In this document: positions 4,097-20,014 of the stretch, piece by piece
Layout: every line of letters begins with the position of its first letter
Position numbering within the stretch: position 1 is the first letter of the stretch
Source of the DNA: Aciduliprofundum boonei T469
GTDB lineage: Archaea; Thermoplasmatota; Thermoplasmata; Thermoplasmatales; Aciduliprofundaceae
Length of the DNA: 32,000 nt
Direction: 5' to 3'
Assembly (NCBI RefSeq): GCF_000025665.1
Contig: NC_013926.1
Location: forward strand, 180,001 to 212,000
Made by a program: the position numbers and the translations under genes
Notes under the pieces: generated by a model
What the model was told of the DNA's origin: nothing
The model's input: the letters and a program-made list of their open reading frames with translations, nothing else
Database searches by the model: none

Positions 4097-5083
4097 TTAA
4101 TCCTCATTAATACTTTGCCCTAAGAACTTGCGAAGCCATGGACCTAGAGCGTAGATAAGGAACATTATGTAGAATACTTGCAATATTGGCTTGAAGGATA
4201 GGGCAAATACAGTTAGAGGAGGAAATACAGTAGCTGCGAGGGAAAGAGATATAGCTTGAGAGCTTGCAGTGGCACCAAGTATCAGAATCATTCCCTGCTC
4301 ATATTTGAATTTTAGAGCTTTAGCTGCCAAAACAGAGAGGGTAGTTTGTATAAAGTAGTATGAGAATAGTGCAGCTAAGACAAGCAGGAAAATTTGCGGC
4401 TCCTCAATTACTTTGCGGGATACTTTTGCCACGGAGAAAAATACAATGAGGAGAATACCCAAGGCAGATATTCCCGGAAGGTACTTCTTTATACCCATAA
4501 AATACTCTCTTCCCTTCATCCTTATTATCTCCCTCCTCGTGAGCATCCCCAAAGCCAAGGGCACTAGGATGTAGAAGAGAAGAATTAACACAAGTTGTAG
4601 AACATTTATTGTGGCGAATATACCTCCGTTGAAGTAAATTAAAATGGGTGAGAGAATTGGAATGAGAAGCAGACCAATAACAGCTATTACCAAAGCATCT
4701 GCCACGCTCGCATCTGCTATCCCGCTCCATCCTATGAGCATGTTAGAGCAGGGAATTGCACCCACTAGAACCAAGGCAAGAGCGAGGTCATCGTAACCAA
4801 TCAAAAGGGTGCGGGTAAGGAAGAAGGCTGTGAGGGAGGCAATGAAGTAAGCAAATATCAGAGTTGATGAGATGAGCTTGTAATTCCTTCCAGCCCTTTT
4901 GACCTTTTCTACCTCCATTCCAGTTAGCATGGGGTAGAGCATGATAAACACGGCGGCAACGCTTACTAGCATTATATTCATCTTTGTGAAATCAATATAA
5001 TAGCCCAAAATTAGAGCAATTATAAACACAAGGGTCACATAGAGATACAGCCTTCGCTTGATATGAATAAGAATTTCAAGCAT
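4097..5083 (-). CDS. BASS/ACR3 superfamily (sodium/bile-acid symporter-like) transporter
   Basis: 328-aa polytopic membrane protein with about 10 hydrophobic segments. The segment GAIPCSNMLIGWSGIADASVADAL resembles the crossover-helix motif of SBF/ACR3 transporters. Substrate unknown. Confidence 0.65.
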   Translation of the reverse strand: MLEILIHIKRRLYLYVTLVFIIALILGYYIDFTKMNIMLVSVAAVFIMLYPMLTGMEVEKVKRAGRNYKLISSTLIFAYFIASLTAFFLTRTLLIGYDDLALALVLVGAIPCSNMLIGWSGIADASVADALVIAVIGLLLIPILSPILIYFNGGIFATINVLQLVLILLFYILVPLALGMLTRREIIRMKGREYFMGIKKYLPGISALGILLIVFFSVAKVSRKVIEEPQIFLLVLAALFSYYFIQTTLSVLAAKALKFKYEQGMILILGATASSQAISLSLAATVFPPLTVFALSFKPILQVFYIMFLIYALGPWLRKFLGQSINED

Positions 5084-5104
5084 ATGGGTATAATCTTGTG
5101 GATA

Positions 5105-5112
5105 TTATTTAA
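5105..5112 (-). promoter_or_regulatory. TATA box (TTAAATAA on the minus strand) for the transporter-to-activase operon; leaderless spacing
   Basis: The centre of the element lies 25.5 nt upstream of the ATG at 5083. No SD motif lies in between. Confidence 0.45.
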
Positions 5113-5134
5113 CTATTTCTGGATAAATTTGAGT

Positions 5135-5164
5135 AAAAAATAAAAATATTTATCAAAAATAAAA
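5135..5164 (-). terminator. oligo-T terminator region after the ABC-2 permease gene
   Basis: The minus strand reads TTTTATTTTTGATAAATATTTTTATTTTTT immediately after the stop at 5166. Archaeal termination typically uses T-runs. Confidence 0.45.
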
Positions 5165-5165
5165 C

Positions 5166-5879
5166 TTATTCCATTCCCCATCTCACCACACGAGAGGATG
5201 CAAGAATCCCAAGCACTACCCAGATTGTAAGAACTGCCACTGGATACCACAGATTATTCCAAGTACTTAATCCTGAAAGTTGCCTAGCAATCTCTGCCCC
5301 TGCTGCAGTAGGAATGAGCAAAACGATATATCTCAAGGTGCTAGGAAGAACGCTCGCTGGATAAAAAACAGGAGGAAGGATGATAAGCATCATCTGAATC
5401 GGGTTTGTTATCGCAGATATATTTGTAGGCTTTTTGATTCGCATAACTATGCTTAACCCCACGAGATTGCTTATTACCATCAATGGAGCTACAGCCACAA
5501 GGGATGCTAAAACTATAAGCCAAGCGTTTAGAAACATTATGAGAGGAAGCATGTATATAAAATCAGCAAGCATGAATACAAGGCCAGAAATAAAATATCC
5601 AAATATGTAATGAAATGGCTTAACAGGAGATGCAATAAACATATCCATAGTCTTCCCCTGCTTATCCCAGCCTATACTTTGAGCTACTAGGTTCACTCCC
5701 ATACTCCATCCTCCAGAAATGAACCATGCTACCAAAACATTTTTCAAACCAGTAATACCTCCCCAAACAAACATGAGTATTGCAAAACCTATGACAATGA
5801 ATAAATCTTGTACGAGCCATAGAGGTTGGCGCCGGATCCATCTACTTGTTAGATATACAATACCTTTAATTTTCCCCAT
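5166..5879 (-). CDS. ABC-2 type transporter permease
   Basis: Six-TM hydrophobic profile, and translationally coupled to the ATPase gene by a 14-nt overlap. The ORF-track start at 5897 is TTG. ATG at 5879 (MGKIKGIV...) lies 6 nt downstream of GGAGGTG. Confidence 0.85.
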   Translation of the reverse strand: MGKIKGIVYLTSRWIRRQPLWLVQDLFIVIGFAILMFVWGGITGLKNVLVAWFISGGWSMGVNLVAQSIGWDKQGKTMDMFIASPVKPFHYIFGYFISGLVFMLADFIYMLPLIMFLNAWLIVLASLVAVAPLMVISNLVGLSIVMRIKKPTNISAITNPIQMMLIILPPVFYPASVLPSTLRYIVLLIPTAAGAEIARQLSGLSTWNNLWYPVAVLTIWVVLGILASSRVVRWGME

Positions 5880-6756
5880 TTCCCACACCTCCAACAATGT
5901 ACAGATATGAATCCTCCAAACTTATCTCCTCTATCCCTATGCTCTTTGCGTCTATTTTCTCCGCTATTTCCATAGCTTCTCCTCTACTTTTTGCGTATAT
6001 TATCTTCCTGTCACCTAAATCTATATGCTCTTTAAGTGGGAGCTTTGAAGCATTTTTTACCACTATCTTATGCGTGTATGGTATCCTATCCTTCAATTCA
6101 TCCACTGTACCTTTAGCCACGCTTTTTCCCTTGCTTATCATAACTACATAATCCCCTAGGATTTCAGCTTCTTTCATATCATGGGTGGTTAGAACTATCG
6201 TCTTACCTCTGTTTGCCTCCTCTCGTAATGATTTCCATACAACATACCTGGCCTCTACATCAAGACCGCTTGACGGTTCATCCAAAAAAACTACAGGAGC
6301 TCCAGAAGCCAGAACCATAGCAACTGCCACTCTTTTTCTCTGCCCTCCACTTAAAGCTATTGCAGGAATATTTCTAACTTCCCACAAGTCAAGGAGCTTT
6401 AAATATTTCTCGCTTCTCTTGACCCCCTCTTCCTTAGAAATACCTCTAATCATAAGATAACCCTTCATAGCATCCAAAGGACTCCAATTATTATCCACAT
6501 GGATATCCTGCGGGCAGAGCGCAATGAGTTTTCTCACTTTCCACACATCTTCTACAGTGGATGAGCCCTCAACTATTGCTTCTCCCCGCGTTGGCTTCAA
6601 AAGTGTGGTGAGCATACCTATAGTTGTGGTCTTTCCTGCCCCGTTTGGTCCAAGAAGCACTGTTATCTTGCCCTGCTCTGCTTTGAAATTCACATCTCTG
6701 GCACCCCACACCCCATTACTGTATCTTTTTCCAAGATGCTTGGCAATGACGCTCAT
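5866..6756 (-). CDS. ABC transporter ATP-binding protein (ABC-2/drug-exporter type)
   Basis: Walker A GPNGAGKTT, signature LSGGQRKR, Walker B VVFLDEPSSGLD, H-loop TTHDM. The ORF-track start at 6762 is GTG. ATG at 6756 is preceded by AAGGTGGTG. Confidence 0.95.
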   Translation of the reverse strand: MSVIAKHLGKRYSNGVWGARDVNFKAEQGKITVLLGPNGAGKTTTIGMLTTLLKPTRGEAIVEGSSTVEDVWKVRKLIALCPQDIHVDNNWSPLDAMKGYLMIRGISKEEGVKRSEKYLKLLDLWEVRNIPAIALSGGQRKRVAVAMVLASGAPVVFLDEPSSGLDVEARYVVWKSLREEANRGKTIVLTTHDMKEAEILGDYVVMISKGKSVAKGTVDELKDRIPYTHKIVVKNASKLPLKEHIDLGDRKIIYAKSRGEAMEIAEKIDAKSIGIEEISLEDSYLYIVGGVGNGEN

Positions 6757-6768
6757 ATTCACACCACC

Positions 6769-6954
6769 TTACCACGAGTGCCATCCATCTTTGAGAATTA
6801 AAGCAATTCCAGCGATTATGAGCAGTATAGGCCCTATTATACATACATTGAATTTTATTATTCCCAGCATCTCTAGGAGCCACAAAACACCTATGATTAT
6901 GAGAAACACGCCACCCAGAACTGCTCCAACGGACATATAACCTTTATATCTCAT
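6769..6954 (-). CDS. 61-aa two-TM miniprotein, LiaI-LiaF-TM (DUF5668)-like
   Basis: Its ATG overlaps the upstream stop (ATGA at 6951..6954). The pattern GGVFLIIIGVLWLLEMLG...IIGPILLIIAGIALIL matches the two-helix LiaF-type TM pattern, judged by eye. Confidence 0.65.
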   Translation of the reverse strand: MRYKGYMSVGAVLGGVFLIIIGVLWLLEMLGIIKFNVCIIGPILLIIAGIALILKDGWHSW

Positions 6955-7910
6955 CTCCTAACCACCTCTTTAATCTTGGATTTCCTGCTTACTTTTAATT
7001 TCTCAGCTTCAATCTTATCTATATAACAATTATCCCCTACTGTCACCTTTTCACCCTTTATGAATTCGGCTCTAACACATTCCACATAAATTTCCTCACC
7101 GAAAATTTTGCTAACTTTCATAGTTCCTGTGAATTTTCTCAGAATTCCCCTCTTACTTCTTATCTCCACTCTTTCTGCCACAATTCTATCCAATGAACTC
7201 TTGCCATCAATTTTCATTTTTAACCCTTCTGCTTTCAAATAAGTTCCCTTTATACTCCCTTCAACGCTAATGCCTTCTCCTATAATCTCGTTGCAAACAA
7301 TAGCTCCACCAAGCCTAATTTTCTCACCTTTAACCCTATTCGCATGTAAAACTCCTCCACAACTTATACTTTCTCCAACCACATCTCCATTAATCTTAGC
7401 ACTACCACCAAAGCTTATGATATTCGCTCTTATAGTCCCTTCAGCATAGAGAGAGCCTGCCACGGATAATTTCTTCGCTCTGATATCCCCCTTTATCTTA
7501 ACACTCCCAGATGCTGATATGTAATTGTATCTCCCAGAAGGAATTGTACAGGCACCCGCGCATTTGTAATCTCTCCCACTCATATTCTCGGCTTTATTTT
7601 CAATTTCCTTGCTCTCTACCTTCTTAAACACTTTCTCTTCTACTTCCTCGGCAGTTGTTTTACTATCCTCTGGAAAAAATTTTTTTAATTCTTCATCCAT
7701 TTTTTTCATGGAGCGAGATAAGATATCATCTATTCCTCCCATAGTGGAATTTTCATATTCTCCCTCTTCTCTAATTTTCTCTGGCTCTTCTTCAATTCTT
7801 TCTTCTTCAACCTCATCCAAATATCTTCTCAAAATGTCCTCGTAAGTTTCCTTGCTTATCTCACCTTTCTCATACCTTTCCCTCAATTTTTTAATGAAAT
7901 CATCTTCCAT
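6951..7910 (-). CDS. SHOCT-like N-terminus + acidic linker + beta-helix repeat domain (Toastrack/DUF4097/bactofilin-like)
   Basis: The N-terminus KKLRERYEKGEISKETYEDILRRYL is SHOCT-like. The C-terminal ~200 aa show a short-period repeat of G/hydrophobic rungs (KIKGDIRAKKLSVAGSLYAEGTIRANIISFGGSAKINGDVVGESISCGGVLHANRVKGEKIRLGGAIV...), typical of single-stranded right-handed beta-helices. Confidence 0.7.
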   Translation of the reverse strand: MEDDFIKKLRERYEKGEISKETYEDILRRYLDEVEEERIEEEPEKIREEGEYENSTMGGIDDILSRSMKKMDEELKKFFPEDSKTTAEEVEEKVFKKVESKEIENKAENMSGRDYKCAGACTIPSGRYNYISASGSVKIKGDIRAKKLSVAGSLYAEGTIRANIISFGGSAKINGDVVGESISCGGVLHANRVKGEKIRLGGAIVCNEIIGEGISVEGSIKGTYLKAEGLKMKIDGKSSLDRIVAERVEIRSKRGILRKFTGTMKVSKIFGEEIYVECVRAEFIKGEKVTVGDNCYIDKIEAEKLKVSRKSKIKEVVRR

Positions 7911-7932
7911 AATTGGGCTATGGAGTGATGGA

Positions 7933-7940
7933 ATATAAAA
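7933..7940 (-). promoter_or_regulatory. TATA box (TTTTATAT on the minus strand) for the Toastrack-ABC operon; leaderless spacing
   Basis: Its centre lies 26.5 nt upstream of the ATG at 7910. Confidence 0.45.
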
Positions 7941-7970
7941 TTTTTTATAAAAATTTTAATTTAAAAATTC

Positions 7971-8006
7971 AACTTCTACTTTGAAGTTTCAACTTAAAAG
8001 TTGAAA
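7971..8006. promoter_or_regulatory. two adjacent palindromes (candidate operator) in the divergent promoter
   Basis: AACTTC-N6-GAAGTT spans 7971..7988. A perfect 9-bp inverted repeat TTTCAACTT-aa-AAGTTGAAA spans 7987..8006. The half-site TTCAACTT also occurs as a direct repeat at 7968 and 7988. Confidence 0.55.
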
Positions 8007-8029
8007 TAGAATAAGGGCATTATAGAACT

Positions 8030-8443
8030 ATGAATCCCAGTGAAAAAATATCCCTCATAGTATCACCTCTGCGCATTAAGCTCTTGGAGAGTTTGAGAGA
8101 TGAGAGACATCCGGAGGATTTAGCAAGGGAGTTTAAGATAACAAGACAAGCCGTTGATAAACACCTTTCTATCCTTTACAGATACGGATTAGTTGATAAG
8201 AGAATAAAGGAAGGCATAAGGCCCATGGTGTTTTACAGGATAACATCCGAAGGTGAAGAGTTTCTTCAGAACTTTGAAAATATGGCAGAAGGACATTTTA
8301 TAAGCGTGAGAAAAAGATATAAAGATGAGCTCTTAACCCTAGACAGGATGCTAGTGGATGGAGAGCTCAATGAGGGAGAGTATAAGAGGAGGAGAAATGC
8401 TCTTGATAAAAGGTTCAAATGGGTGATGGAAGGATGGAGATAA
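8030..8443 (+). CDS. ArsR-type winged-helix transcriptional regulator with a C-terminal SHOCT-like helical tail
   Basis: wHTH core RIKLLESL...EDLAREFKITRQAVDKHLSILYRYGLVDKR...FYRITSEG. C-terminal tail LDRMLVDGELNEGEYKRRRNAL. Confidence 0.85.
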   Translation: MNPSEKISLIVSPLRIKLLESLRDERHPEDLAREFKITRQAVDKHLSILYRYGLVDKRIKEGIRPMVFYRITSEGEEFLQNFENMAEGHFISVRKRYKDELLTLDRMLVDGELNEGEYKRRRNALDKRFKWVMEGWR

Positions 8444-8883
8444 GAAAAGGCAAAAGAGAGGATTTGCAGTATCTTCCATCCATACTTATGAAAGCATACA
8501 AGGGATTAGAGGAATATGGCGAGGAGGATATTAACAAGGCCAGAAAGTACATAGAGGACCTCTACGAGGAGGACCCAGAGTGCTTCTTTGTAGCCGAGGA
8601 AAATGGTGAAATAGCGGGATTCATATTCTGCAACCGCTTCTGGTATAGCAAGTTTGAGCATTCCCAAGTAGGTGCTATCCACGAAATCGTTGTATTGCCT
8701 TCTCATAGGCACGAAGGGATTGGAAAAATGTTGATCGAGAAAGCCATGGAAAAACTAAAGCCATCAAAGATTGAATTATGGGTTGGAGAGAAAAATGAAA
8801 ATGCCATAAAGTTCTACGAAAATTTAGGATTCAAAAGAAAAGAAAAAGCTGGAAAATGGGTTAGAATGATCTATATTGCATAG
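8434..8883 (+). CDS. GNAT family N-acetyltransferase (RimI/NAT-like)
   Basis: Acetyl-CoA motif A VLPSHRHEGIGKMLIEKA and the C-terminal block NENAIKFYENLGF. The ORF-track start is 8419. ATG at 8434 (MEIRKGKREDL) has GGTGAT upstream and overlaps the regulator stop. Confidence 0.88.
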   Translation: MEIRKGKREDLQYLPSILMKAYKGLEEYGEEDINKARKYIEDLYEEDPECFFVAEENGEIAGFIFCNRFWYSKFEHSQVGAIHEIVVLPSHRHEGIGKMLIEKAMEKLKPSKIELWVGEKNENAIKFYENLGFKRKEKAGKWVRMIYIA

Positions 8884-12957: not shown

Positions 12958-13074
12958 TCCCGGCTCCCGGATTCGAACCGGGGACCTGCGGATCTCTGCT
13001 GAGCGGCGTTTATGCCCGCCCCGGGCATATCCCAACTACAGTCCGCCGCTCTAGCCAGACTGAGCTAAGCCGGG
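12958..13074 (-). tRNA. tRNA-Tyr (anticodon GTA) with a 42-nt intron at the canonical 37/38 position
   Basis: Hand-folded cloverleaf. Acceptor CCCGGCT/AGCCGGG, D arm GCTC-AGTCTGGCTA-GAGC, anticodon stem GCGGA/TCCGC with loop CTGTAG^A, T arm CCCGG-TTCGAAT-CCGGG, discriminator A. Mature length 75 nt. No encoded CCA. TATA-like CTTAAATA lies about 28 nt upstream. Confidence 0.9.
12994..13035 (-). other. tRNA-Tyr intron with bulge-helix-bulge splice motif
   Basis: Intron sequence TTGGGATATGCCCGGGGCGGGCATAAACGCCGCTCAGCAGAG. The central 4-bp helix CTGT/GCAG is flanked by 3-nt bulges (AG^T and AG^A). The outer helix is TGGG/CTCA. There is also an internal 7-bp hairpin ATGCCCG-GGG-CGGGCAT. Confidence 0.8.
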
Positions 13075-17911: not shown

Positions 17912-19054
17912 CTATTCTATACTCACCTCCACATTGCCTAAATCGTTCCAAATATAACTCAGTTCTAGGCCCTTAAACGGAACATAACAGGTCTTGTAAG
18001 AATTCGCATTTGGTCTCACTGGTACCTCTACAGGTATTTTTCCAGAACCGTTATAGCTGTAGAACACCATAACCGGATATTTTCCCGGCTTTGTGTAGTT
18101 GTGCCATACTACCTTGCTTTTTGTGATTGTATAACTCCCGTCCATCCAGAATACATAAATGTTTGTGTAATTGTAAGGTGGTTGAATTTCTAATTTCACC
18201 TCTCTTTCTCCTATCTTTGCAATATTCACATTGGGAGTAGGAAGCGATGGAATATCCTCTTGTGGTATTATTTCGAGATTTACTATTGTGGAAAAGTCAA
18301 GAACATTTTTTCCATCTCTTATCCAGAATCCAAATTTCAAAGGTATGTGTGCGTAATCCAAAAGATAACTTACATTTATGTAATTAAACAAGATATACGC
18401 GGATGAGTAAATTCTAAGATTTTTCGCATTTGTAGTTATGTTATATGTAAGATTATCCCAAGGACCAAATAGACATACGAAAGAATTTGGAGATGCATAG
18501 TATACACCATCATTCTTCAACCATGTAGTATAATTGATAGTACTATTTCTATCCAACGAAATAACACTAGAGGACTTATCTACATCTAGAGATAGAGAGA
18601 TATCTGCATCATATTTCTGTGTCTGCACTTCAGGGAGATTATATCCAACATAATCCTCTGTGAATTTTGTGAGATTTCCACGAAAGCCATGATAGGTTAT
18701 ATTTACTAGAAAACTATGATAACTCTCGTCAAGAGTTTTGGGATATATGCTAACTGATATATTTGCATATTTTATCCCCTGATATTCTAAATTCTCTGTA
18801 AAATTATAAATATGGTGGCTTTCCCACAAATTTTCCCAATAATTGAAAATTCCATCATAATCACTTTTCAAACGATTCTGATAAGCTGAATTAATATTAT
18901 GGTACCTTGCAACCTTTTCTCCCATTGAAATATCTTTAATTTCCAAATGTGTTTTTTCTACACTATGATGTCCTGCAAGATAGTACCCACTTCCACCTAC
19001 AACAAGCAGGATGAGAAGCACTATAGCCAAGAGGATTTTAGTTTTCTTGAGCAT
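17912..19054 (-). CDS. N-terminally anchored extracellular protein, sequon-rich, with a C-terminal PKD-like domain
   Basis: Signal-anchor MLKKTKILLAIVLLILLVVGG. 12 N-x-S/T sequons by hand count. C-terminal VFWMDGSYTITKSKVVWHNYTKPGKYPVMVF resembles the PKD WxFGDG...HxYxxxGxYxV pattern. AAGGAGG lies 8 nt upstream of the ATG. Confidence 0.72.
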   Translation of the reverse strand: MLKKTKILLAIVLLILLVVGGSGYYLAGHHSVEKTHLEIKDISMGEKVARYHNINSAYQNRLKSDYDGIFNYWENLWESHHIYNFTENLEYQGIKYANISVSIYPKTLDESYHSFLVNITYHGFRGNLTKFTEDYVGYNLPEVQTQKYDADISLSLDVDKSSSVISLDRNSTINYTTWLKNDGVYYASPNSFVCLFGPWDNLTYNITTNAKNLRIYSSAYILFNYINVSYLLDYAHIPLKFGFWIRDGKNVLDFSTIVNLEIIPQEDIPSLPTPNVNIAKIGEREVKLEIQPPYNYTNIYVFWMDGSYTITKSKVVWHNYTKPGKYPVMVFYSYNGSGKIPVEVPVRPNANSYKTCYVPFKGLELSYIWNDLGNVEVSIE

Positions 19055-19114: not shown

Positions 19115-19855
19115 TTATTCCCCTGCAACTATTTTCAAAACTACCTGCGTTTTCAACTCGTGCATATCCGTCCACCCCAGCAACGATGGATGGCCGTAAT
19201 ATGCTGCAACAGTGAGGATTATTGTGTGGTTGAGATGCTGTGATAGCGAATCATCAAGATTTATCTGGAGAGCAAAACTAACACCATAGAAATTCTCGTT
19301 TTTCCTGTCTTTATTCACGCCAATCAGAACATGTTTGTAAAGCCAGTTGTAATAATAAGTCTCCCCCATATAGTTAGGCGTGGGATTTGGTGTGGCATCA
19401 AACCACAGATTTGTGCTTTTAATTCTGTTCTTTATCACAGGAATATCAAGATGCACATAATCATCCTTTCCATAATCATATCTTATCACCAATTTCTGCA
19501 GTATGTAATCCCCGCTCAGGCGCTCTGCGTATGCAGTAAGGTTGCCGCCAAGTTCATCGTAGCTATTGATATCATATAGATATTCACTACATCTTAAAAC
19601 AATTCCAATCTCAAAATTTTTATTGGTGGAGAAATTCCCTGCATATTTGTTGATACCCAAAATATAATCTTCTTTGGAATAGTTTCTATAGACTGTGATG
19701 ATTGAGGGATAGCTATTCAACACGGGCTTTTCCATATCCTTCTCTGGTTTCCACCACTTCACTTTGGGTTGCGAGGCAAAATATGCGCCTAAAAGAATGG
19801 CTATCACTACAATCGCTCCAATTCCGAGTAGCAGAGCTTTCATTCTCTTGCTCAT
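19115..19855 (-). CDS. N-terminally anchored hypothetical extracellular protein
   Basis: The ORF-track start at 19882 is GTG. ATG at 19855 (MSKRMKALLLGIGAIVVIAILLGAYF) lies 5 nt downstream of GGAGGT. Single TM anchor, 4 sequons, Tyr/Asn-rich. Confidence 0.68.
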   Translation of the reverse strand: MSKRMKALLLGIGAIVVIAILLGAYFASQPKVKWWKPEKDMEKPVLNSYPSIITVYRNYSKEDYILGINKYAGNFSTNKNFEIGIVLRCSEYLYDINSYDELGGNLTAYAERLSGDYILQKLVIRYDYGKDDYVHLDIPVIKNRIKSTNLWFDATPNPTPNYMGETYYYNWLYKHVLIGVNKDRKNENFYGVSFALQINLDDSLSQHLNHTIILTVAAYYGHPSLLGWTDMHELKTQVVLKIVAGE

Positions 19856-20014
19856 CCTTTTACCTCCATGCATCATTCCCACATAGGCATTTCGTATTCT
19901 CTCAAATCAATAAAATGCATGTGAGTCGTTATATATATCCTTTATCACAACTATACAAAATTTCAAGATTGACTCAGAAATACAGAAAATTAGCTCATTC
20001 ATCTCAAAGAAAAA

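Follow-up and report, generated by a model that had tools for sequence, protein, structure and literature searches.

Bactofilins, which form filaments, are mostly viewed as shape scaffolds, and SHOCT has, to our knowledge, been without a known function since 2013. Here we analyse a locus of the archaeon Aciduliprofundum boonei T469 (Thermoplasmatota, DHVE2) in which the two appear to be joined: a predicted long bactofilin of 319 amino acids (aa) carries an added N-terminal SHOCT helix pair, and its gene stands divergently beside that of a regulator with a SHOCT-like tail. The locus lies in a stretch of 32,000 nt (NC_013926.1, 180,001-212,000), hereafter called the window, within which all positions are counted. 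By mechanism and bactofilin subtype, the closest described system is BacR (YhbD, DUF4004)-BacE/BacF (yhbDEF) of Bacillus subtilis, in which BacE/BacF are reported to bind BacR, weakening its binding to DNA and retaining it at the membrane, while vancomycin releases BacR to the nucleoid (Velten et al. 2026, PMC13649987). By domain vocabulary, the closest are the PSP-Lia contexts of Ravi et al. 2024 (PMC11237479), a paper that does not mention bactofilin; the Toastrack treated there comprises DUF4097, DUF2154 and DUF2807 and has a unique intertwined region of seven strands at its N-terminus (PDB 4QRK, 4OPW). Archaeal members of the bactofilin superfamily have been described as halofilins, and a cluster of BacEF-like bactofilins with 13 windings, a Methanobacterium protein among them, was noted as separate (Curtis et al. 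2024, PMC11459167); that work describes neither SHOCT, nor a regulator paired with the bactofilin, nor the operon context. Our literature search found no paper containing both 'bactofilin' and 'SHOCT'.

Like its B. subtilis counterpart, the archaeal locus combines the long bactofilin subtype, with ~12-13 windings, and an adjoining gene for a dedicated transcription factor, and the published membrane sequestration with release on envelope stress is the mechanism that we propose for the archaeal module. However, the archaeal regulator is an ArsR/HTH_5-type winged helix-turn-helix (wHTH) protein with a SHOCT-like tail instead of a DUF4004 protein, and is encoded divergently instead of in the same operon. 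The N-terminal SHOCT and the acidic linker that follows it are lacking in the ~224-240-aa bacterial relatives (P0068, its operon partner and P0179), and the archaeal module adds a LiaF-like miniprotein with two transmembrane (TM) helices as well as exporters, in a host without peptidoglycan. With the PSP-Lia contexts it shares a cytoplasmic single-stranded β-helix, a SHOCT-like pair, a LiaI/LiaF-type TM segment, a helix-turn-helix (HTH) regulator with a SHOCT-like end, as in DUF2089, and an ATP-binding cassette (ABC) ATPase with a permease. In contrast to these contexts, the β-helix is that of a bactofilin, there are two TM helices and not four, and the window holds no PspA, PspC or two-component system. 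While the halofilins are likewise archaeal members of the bactofilin superfamily, the 319-aa protein differs both from HalA, with its two six-winding halves joined head to head via a helical hairpin, and from HalB, which has five TM helices and an extracellular bactofilin domain. LiaF of Firmicutes also combines a LiaF-type TM hairpin with a cytoplasmic β-helix, an arrangement to which some bactofilin relatives correspond as single polypeptides with a C-terminal TM anchor; here, however, the two parts are encoded by two coupled genes, the β-helix belongs to another family, and there is no LiaS/LiaR partner. The genes and the regulator motif on which the argument rests are the following.

6951..7910, minus strand: gene of the 319-aa protein, a predicted SHOCT-bactofilin (open reading frame (ORF) list, Pfam, AlphaFold2 and BLASTP)
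6769..6954, minus strand: gene of the 61-aa two-TM miniprotein, LiaI/LiaF-like TM family (PF18917, PF22570)
5866..6756, minus strand: gene of a predicted DrrA-type ABC ATPase, 296 aa from ATG 6756 (the ORF from GTG 6762 has 298 aa)
5166..5879, minus strand: gene of a predicted ABC-2 type permease, 237 aa from ATG 5879 (ORF as listed, 5166-5897)
8030..8443, plus strand: gene of the 137-aa regulator, divergent from the 319-aa gene
8324..8413, plus strand: SHOCT-like helix pair of the regulator, residues 99-128 (invariant residues in the alignment; cross-HMM test)

All five reading frames are found at these coordinates in the ORF list of the window. For the ATPase, the mechanical start is GTG 6762 (range 5866-6762), but ATG 6756 is the more likely one and is preferred here because GGTGGTG lies 5-6 nt before it; ATG 5879 is the likely start of the permease. 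An earlier note on this DNA had described four co-directional minus-strand genes with two overlaps, divergent from an ArsR-type regulator gene, and this layout was borne out. Read base by base, ATG 6954-6952 of the 61-aa gene overlaps TGA 6953-6951 of the 319-aa gene as ATGA, and a 14-nt overlap extends from the permease ATG 5879 to the ATPase stop at 5866, while the stop of the 61-aa gene and the ATPase ATG are 12 nt apart and 119 nt lie between the starts of the regulator and 319-aa genes. The overlaps establish, at the level of gene structure, translational coupling of the 319-aa gene to the 61-aa gene in a predicted operon with a DrrA-type ABC-2 exporter. The absence of PspA/ESCRT-III, a histidine kinase and PspC, which had also been pointed out, holds for all 29 ORFs of at least 70 aa in the 32-kb window.

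The identity of the parts of this module can be assigned with high confidence. In the 319-aa protein, a predicted SHOCT helix pair (residues 6-29, nt 7824-7895; E 2.6e-5) is followed by a linker with low AlphaFold2 confidence (residues 30-112, nt 7575-7823), which is acidic (28 D/E versus 14 K/R), and by a β-helix of ~12 windings (residues 113-319, nt 6954-7574); SHOCT and linker agree with the earlier note. The same note had labelled the β-helix a Toastrack, and here the profile searches lead elsewhere, placing the protein in the bactofilin superfamily among BacE/BacF-type members. Its only β-helix match in Pfam is Bactofilin (PF04519, E 1.2e-3), and neither DUF4097, DUF2154 nor DUF2807 matches at E<=1. 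An exhaustive profile search seeded with the 21 closest homologs yielded 2,379 cluster representatives at E<=1e-3, 50 of which were sampled for Pfam. Bactofilin was matched by 43 of these (best E 2.3e-13), SHOCT by 14 and FapA by 10, while DUF2807 was matched by 10, all below the cut-off, and DUF4097 by a single one (E 1.3e-3, below the cut-off). Eight relatives checked singly all exceed the Pfam Bactofilin cut-off, with 31-51 bits; one of high score, P0086 (50.7 bits on PF04519), aligns with residues 114-301 of the 319-aa protein across the helix (BLASTP, E 5e-17). Among solved structures, a broad family profile (A2) matches the bactofilins BacA (2N3D, E 2.6e-5) and TtBac (6RIA, E 0.025), and no other β-helix at E<0.05 and no Toastrack chain among the PDB sequences. 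The Toastrack assignment was rejected on these Pfam and solved-structure profile searches.

The AlphaFold2 model (mean predicted local distance difference test score (pLDDT) 82.5) has two helices at the N-terminus, residues 4-14 and 20-41 (pLDDT 81-92), and one continuous β-helix with pLDDT >90 over residues 113-318. Invariant Gly residues recur at 135, 152, 169, 186, 202 and 218, and the repeat period of 16-17 residues, with autocorrelation peaks at 16-17 and 34, corresponds to ~12 windings. A HalA-like build of two half-domains joined by a helical hairpin was considered and rejected, as the single helix of the model is interrupted by a short loop only at 253-262. Residues 114-318 align end to end with residues 7-223 of P0068 (29% identity, BLASTP E 4e-24), a protein of 224 aa from the clostridium Oceanirhabdus that is annotated as 'polymer-forming cytoskeletal protein'. 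Its gene is the third of a DUF4004-bactofilin-bactofilin cluster with the yhbDEF/bacR-bacE-bacF arrangement, and a second DUF4004-bactofilin pair is present in locus L107. Other relatives bear the database names 'polymer-forming cytoskeletal protein' or 'CcmA (bactofilin family)', and the ortholog P0003 carries a precomputed match to SHOCT (PF09851). Profile and alignment evidence together identify the 319-aa protein as a predicted cytoplasmic, long BacE/BacF-type bactofilin to which a SHOCT segment at the N-terminus and a flexible acidic linker have been added.

Two further features of this family may be recorded. The DHVE2 orthologs share an invariant YKCAGxC at the first winding (C117 and C121 of the 319-aa protein), and, close to the C-terminus, the Cys of G(D/P)xC (C295) is nearly invariant across the wider family, including the bacterial BacE/F-type proteins; these residues could form a disulfide or metal site. 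Tandem long bactofilin genes, which recall the BacE/BacF pair of Firmicutes, occur on a soil Thermoplasmata contig (L097, 3816-4799 and 5001-5805) and on a Korarchaeota contig (L106, 3060-3875 and 4001-4717).

The regulator consists of an ArsR/HTH_5-type winged helix (residues ~9-72), a 37-residue helix (73-109) and a SHOCT-like pair (residues ~99-128). Pfam assigns HTH_5 (30.1 bits, cut-off 22) and HTH_20 (29.8 bits), and the SHOCT match at residues 99-125 is weak (E 0.043). In the AlphaFold2 model (pLDDT 94), the wHTH is followed by the 37-residue helix, a turn and a final helix, and Foldseek retrieves ArsR/SmtB, HxlR and PadR wHTH folds, with SmtB, CadC and HlyU at E~1e-4. Metal sensing is unlikely, as there is no cysteine in the 137 residues; classical ArsR-type metal sites are absent, and the score on NCBIfam HTH_metalloreg, 33.8 bits, falls short of the cut-off of 55. 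A DUF4004 (BacR) neighbour was not found in the window. Regulators from other loci align end to end with this one and contain an invariant L-D-x2-L-x6-E-x2-Y near the C-terminus; L104, D105, L108, E115 and Y118 are invariant in regulators from five lineages. A hidden Markov model (HMM) of the bactofilin N-terminal SHOCT matched 46 of the 58 unique regulators, at residues ~105-134, with >5 bits, and 41 with >10 bits, while none of 116 reversed or shuffled control sequences scored >3 bits. The same motif thus appears to be present on both proteins.

To determine which parts of the locus are conserved, we compared 14 loci from metagenome-assembled genomes (MAGs) of DHVE2 and the closed genome of Aciduliprofundum sp. 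MAR08-339, and, outside DHVE2, four further Thermoplasmata lineages and 80 soil-metagenome loci, the latter GC-rich and essentially one lineage, which makes for a narrow sample. A divergent HTH_5 regulator of ~140 aa lies 150-360 nt upstream of the bactofilin gene in 83 of the 88 loci with sufficient upstream sequence, spanning DHVE2, other Thermoplasmata and the GC-rich soil lineage, although outside DHVE2 the bactofilins share no more than 23-32% identity with the 319-aa protein. Exceptions number five: three loci truncated at a contig end, L004, with an inserted surface-protein gene, and L009, where a radical-SAM-like gene is found instead. The conserved core is this dyad of SHOCT-bactofilin and divergent wHTH-SHOCT regulator, not the four-gene set: the four-gene arrangement that the earlier note expected to recur is complete in L002, L007, L008 and L012, so that it holds within DHVE2 only, and there in part. 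Neither the dyad as conserved core nor the SHOCT-like C-terminus of the regulator had been singled out in that note. The inserted gene of L004 (3821-5782) encodes a 653-aa signal-peptide protein with NosD/parallel-β-helix-like repeats and splits the divergent promoter region. In two other Thermoplasmata lineages, a conserved basic Cys/His mini-ORF of ~40 aa (MLRTRRK..KC..CEHD..HAEL.E.HWV) lies 5 nt upstream of the SHOCT-bactofilin gene (L015 4871-4996, L018 2433-2555; also L016, L017, L019 and L020), a position at which DHVE2 has no gene; it has no Pfam match, and its product could be a small zinc-binding partner.

The intergenic region between the two divergent genes contains three symmetric elements.

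7988..8005, unstranded: O1, candidate operator, perfect palindrome TTCAACTT-AA-AAGTTGAA, 24 nt upstream of the regulator ATG (inverted-repeat search)
7968..7985, unstranded: O2, candidate operator, imperfect copy TTCAACTTCTACTTTGAA, starting 20 nt before O1, partly conserved
7941..7953, unstranded: palindromic A/T element TTTTTTATAAAAA, centred ~37 nt from the bactofilin ATG 7910

In an alignment of 10 DHVE2 intergenic regions, the outer half-sites TTCAAC/GTTGAA of O1 are invariant and the inner arm positions vary symmetrically (CTTTTAAG, CCTATAGG and CCTGTGGG), the pattern that a dimer-bound operator would show. With up to one mismatch, TTCAAC-N6-GTTGAA is found in the 32 kb solely in this intergenic region, as against 0.13 expected occurrences. 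The same alignment has a near-invariant TTTTTATAAAAA block at 7941-7953, which likely acts as TATA box for the bactofilin operon and may work in both directions.

The 61-aa miniprotein had been described as LiaI/LiaF-like, and two Pfam models support this above their cut-off of 27 bits (LiaI-LiaF-like_TM1 PF18917, 31.9 bits; LiaF-TM PF22570, 28.1 bits), as they do for its MAR08-339 ortholog (30.3 and 29.0 bits). Of the 15 DHVE2 loci able to show it, 13 have its gene behind that of the bactofilin, while it is absent from L005 and cut off in L014; conservation of the miniprotein often exceeds that of the bactofilin (77% versus 33% identity in L011). It is likely the membrane tether of the bactofilin, a role supported by related bactofilins that bear a fused C-terminal polytopic TM anchor; no LiaF-TM match was found in those anchors. 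The idea of a cytoplasmic β-helix protein paired with a separate membrane partner, already present in the earlier note, gains support in this way. In its orthologs the cytoplasmic C-terminal tail of the miniprotein keeps aromatic or Trp residues (KDGWHSW, RRPWDMW, SRYRDWW), which could provide a docking site for the bactofilin.

The two remaining genes of the operon, correctly recognised before as an ABC ATPase and an ABC-2 permease, are predicted to form a DrrAB-type ABC-2 exporter. The ATPase scores 94.9 bits on ABC_tran, and its best NCBIfam-type match is TIGR01188 drrA (218.9 bits, E 9e-65), under the equivalog-style cut-off of 312; the permease scores 32.8 bits on ABC2_membrane (cut-off 26.9). 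Behind the miniprotein gene, the ABC pair is complete in the four loci named above, cut by contig ends in L001, L006 and L009, and absent from L003, L004, L010, L011, L013 and MAR08-339. In the five MAG loci without it, an MFS_1/MFS_3 exporter gene of the same orientation lies 10-70 nt beyond the miniprotein gene, L002 has both ABC-2 and MFS exporters, L005 has an MFS gene in the absence of a miniprotein gene, and MAR08-339 has neither exporter. An initial description of one exporter as 'replaced' by the other was softened, since L002 has both and MAR08-339 neither; differential loss or gain at a variable site fits better. The interval that separates the genes of the miniprotein and of the SBF transporter (window 5083-5166 junction), compared at L002, L003, L004, L010, L011, L013 and L108, holds an ABC-2 pair, an MFS_3-type gene, both or nothing within one genus, and in L002 also a fragment of a second SBF copy. 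In a distant lineage (L022/L103), an ABC ATPase and two ABC-2 permeases are encoded directly downstream of the bactofilin; this system has two permeases where that of DHVE2 has one, and the ATPases are 33% identical.

Based on these observations, we tentatively favour, though at somewhat less than an even chance, a reading of the locus as a self-regulated, membrane-associated bactofilin module in which the bactofilin sequesters its own regulator. The bactofilin would polymerise or assemble under the membrane, where the miniprotein would tether it, and would capture the regulator through the SHOCT motifs that match on the two proteins, whether these pair directly or meet at a shared membrane site, keeping the regulator off its operators. 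A change in the state of the membrane or of the scaffold would free the regulator, which would then bind the palindromes and reset the transcription of two units, its own gene and the operon of bactofilin, miniprotein and exporter. With an ABC-2 system here and MFS or none in relatives, the exporter would be a variable output outside the core. This partner-switch logic is modelled on B. subtilis BacR-BacE/BacF, with an unrelated regulator family in the role of BacR; we infer sequestration in the archaeal module from that parallel, and our confidence in the sequestration mechanism taken alone is moderate to low.

Several results weigh against this proposal. The sole published test of SHOCT self-association was negative (PMC3581485), and SHOCT-like motifs have been proposed to anchor proteins to the inner membrane leaflet (PMC11237479), although such anchoring would also bring regulator and bactofilin together without direct pairing. 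SHOCT is under the Pfam cut-off of 27 bits in both proteins (24.2 bits in the 319-aa protein, 14 bits in the regulator), and so is the PF04519 match of the 319-aa protein (19.5 bits, cut-off 27.9). Direct alignment by hhalign to 86 residues of BacA (2N3D), a stretch drawn from the profile alignment, reached only 32% probability, and Foldseek against the PDB with the 319-aa model gave no significant match; none of the 50 matches displayed was a bactofilin. A narrow, DHVE2-only profile (A1) likewise found no bactofilin among the PDB sequences, its only match being a chance-level SHOCT-like stretch in MetE. Since A1 and the direct hhalign comparison are weak, it is the broader profile, together with transitive homology, that carries the bactofilin link. 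The miniprotein matches only positions 50-95 of the 98-position LiaF-TM model with its two TM helices, being half of the four-TM LiaI-LiaF-TM unit; its cytoplasmic tails are very short (8 and 7 residues), and no LiaF-like miniprotein was seen in the further Thermoplasmata and soil loci examined outside DHVE2. A quick scan with strict settings found no comparable inverted repeat in four other lineages; the palindrome is known within DHVE2 only. In L009, and in L104 of a further lineage outside the count of 88, where a flavodoxin gene takes the regulator's place, the bactofilin has no adjacent regulator. Finally, synteny within DHVE2 is strong overall, so that conservation there is weak evidence by itself.

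A more specific version of the proposal would make SHOCT a docking code, with a bactofilin polymer trapping the wHTH regulator via matched helix pairs and freeing it on disturbance. If this were true, the module would be a kinase-free, one-component device for signalling the state of the membrane, and long bactofilins would trap transcription factors in both domains, DUF4004 in bacteria and wHTH-SHOCT in archaea, after a swap of the regulator. We consider this version doubtful. That one bactofilin subtype is here tied to a regulator of another family, in 83 of 88 archaeal loci, with SHOCT on both partners, points to a principle of scaffolds that trap regulators, and the dyad offers a concrete two-protein test of the role of SHOCT. 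The archaeal module represents an undescribed, strongly conserved form and not a new principle; its interest lies in making SHOCT function experimentally approachable. It also corrects an annotation habit, as such archaeal proteins are called 'hypothetical' or can be mistaken for Toastrack proteins, and it shows exporter genes behind a module that come and go within one genus.

Alternatively, the SHOCT-bactofilin and its tether could form a plain cytoskeletal scaffold that shapes or stabilises the membrane, with a regulator that sets expression only and transporters that are unrelated neighbours. Bactofilins and halofilins are indeed scaffolds of shape and curvature, the 13-winding BacEF-like cluster has archaeal members (PMC11459167), and the exporter slot varies, being empty in MAR08-339. 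However, such a scaffold leaves unexplained why a SHOCT-like motif should be common to regulator and scaffold (the 46 of 58 regulators above) and why a dedicated transcription factor should stand beside long bactofilins both in bacteria, as DUF4004, and in archaea. We regard this explanation as rather unlikely.

The earlier note had instead seen a Lia/Psp-like envelope module. In such an envelope-stress module, a Toastrack protein split from its LiaF-like TM partner would sense envelope damage and control the ABC-2 exporter via the ArsR-type regulator. The LiaI/LiaF-like TM assignment above the Pfam cut-off agrees with this, as do the bacterial occurrences of SHOCT-like and Toastrack proteins, DUF2089 regulators with HTH and SHOCT-like parts and Toastrack-ABC-HTH operons, together with 'occasional transfers' of these domains to Euryarchaeota (PMC11237479); the sub-threshold DUF2807 matches in 10 of the 50 relatives suggest that the two β-helix classes are near each other at the repeat level. 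Against it stand the lack of any Toastrack-model match at E<=1, the 43 Bactofilin matches versus one to DUF4097 among those relatives, solved-structure matches to bactofilins only, the end-to-end alignment of the helix with BacE/F-type proteins, a miniprotein of two TM helices and not four, and the lack of LiaS/LiaR, PspA and PspC in the window. As a family assignment, judged by these profile comparisons, the Lia/Psp reading is already refuted; it remains reasonable as a functional analogy, and overall we hold it to be improbable.

An accessory role for the exporter appears similarly improbable. Here, bactofilin and miniprotein would serve as subunits, one cytoplasmic and one in the membrane, by which an efflux pump (ABC-2 or MFS) is scaffolded or gated, and would signal the pump's activity to the regulator, in a one-component version of Bce-type flux sensing. 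Tightly spaced, co-directional exporters are consistent with this (ABC-2 in the window, L002, L007, L008, L012 and L103; MFS_3 in L003, L004, L010, L011 and L013), but most dyad lineages have no adjacent transporter, including MAR08-339 and the 80 soil loci, and the ABC systems of DHVE2 and L103 differ in architecture, with the low ATPase identity given above. Least probable by far is that the genes form no functional unit and merely reflect inherited synteny in a small order, with SHOCT-like motifs that are coincidental amphipathic helices: while synteny across DHVE2 extends over the region as a whole (exosome, L37ae, RpoP, GNAT, SBF, peptidase), the dyad is kept in lineages with no other common neighbours, and coincidence fits poorly with the coupling overlaps, the footprinted palindrome conserved in the alignment and the control-tested SHOCT similarity. 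Membership in an anti-phage defence system was also considered and dropped, as PADLOC gave generic ABC and wHTH similarities only.

Two further features flank the module.

8419..8883, plus strand: gene of a GNAT acetyltransferase (Acetyltransf_1, 82 bits)
5135..5165, minus strand: T-rich tract 3' of the permease stop (GTTTTATTTTT...TTTTTATTTTTT; sequence reading)

The T-rich tract is likely the end of the operon, by archaeal oligo-T termination. The GNAT gene, whose start overlaps the 3' end of the regulator gene by 25 nt, lies beside the regulator gene in MAR08-339 and in 10 of the 12 DHVE2 MAG loci having a regulator (absent from L005 and L014), and was not found in this position outside DHVE2. 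It is predicted to be co-transcribed with the regulator in DHVE2 and to be peripheral to the module, and it may belong to the same regulon. The DHVE2 gene order runs from the exosome, L37ae and RpoP genes to those of GNAT and the regulator on one strand, followed by the bactofilin and miniprotein genes on the other; the window region is syntenic with the closed MAR08-339 genome.

Elsewhere in the window, an Rfam tRNA call of 117 nt (12958-13074, minus strand, 55 bits), not reported by ARAGORN, is probably an intron-containing archaeal tRNA. Two adjacent minus-strand ORFs of 380 and 255 aa (17912-19054 and 19115-19882), for which Pfam gave no match at E<=1e-5, adjoin two genes for GtrA-like membrane proteins and one for an Rce1-like protease.

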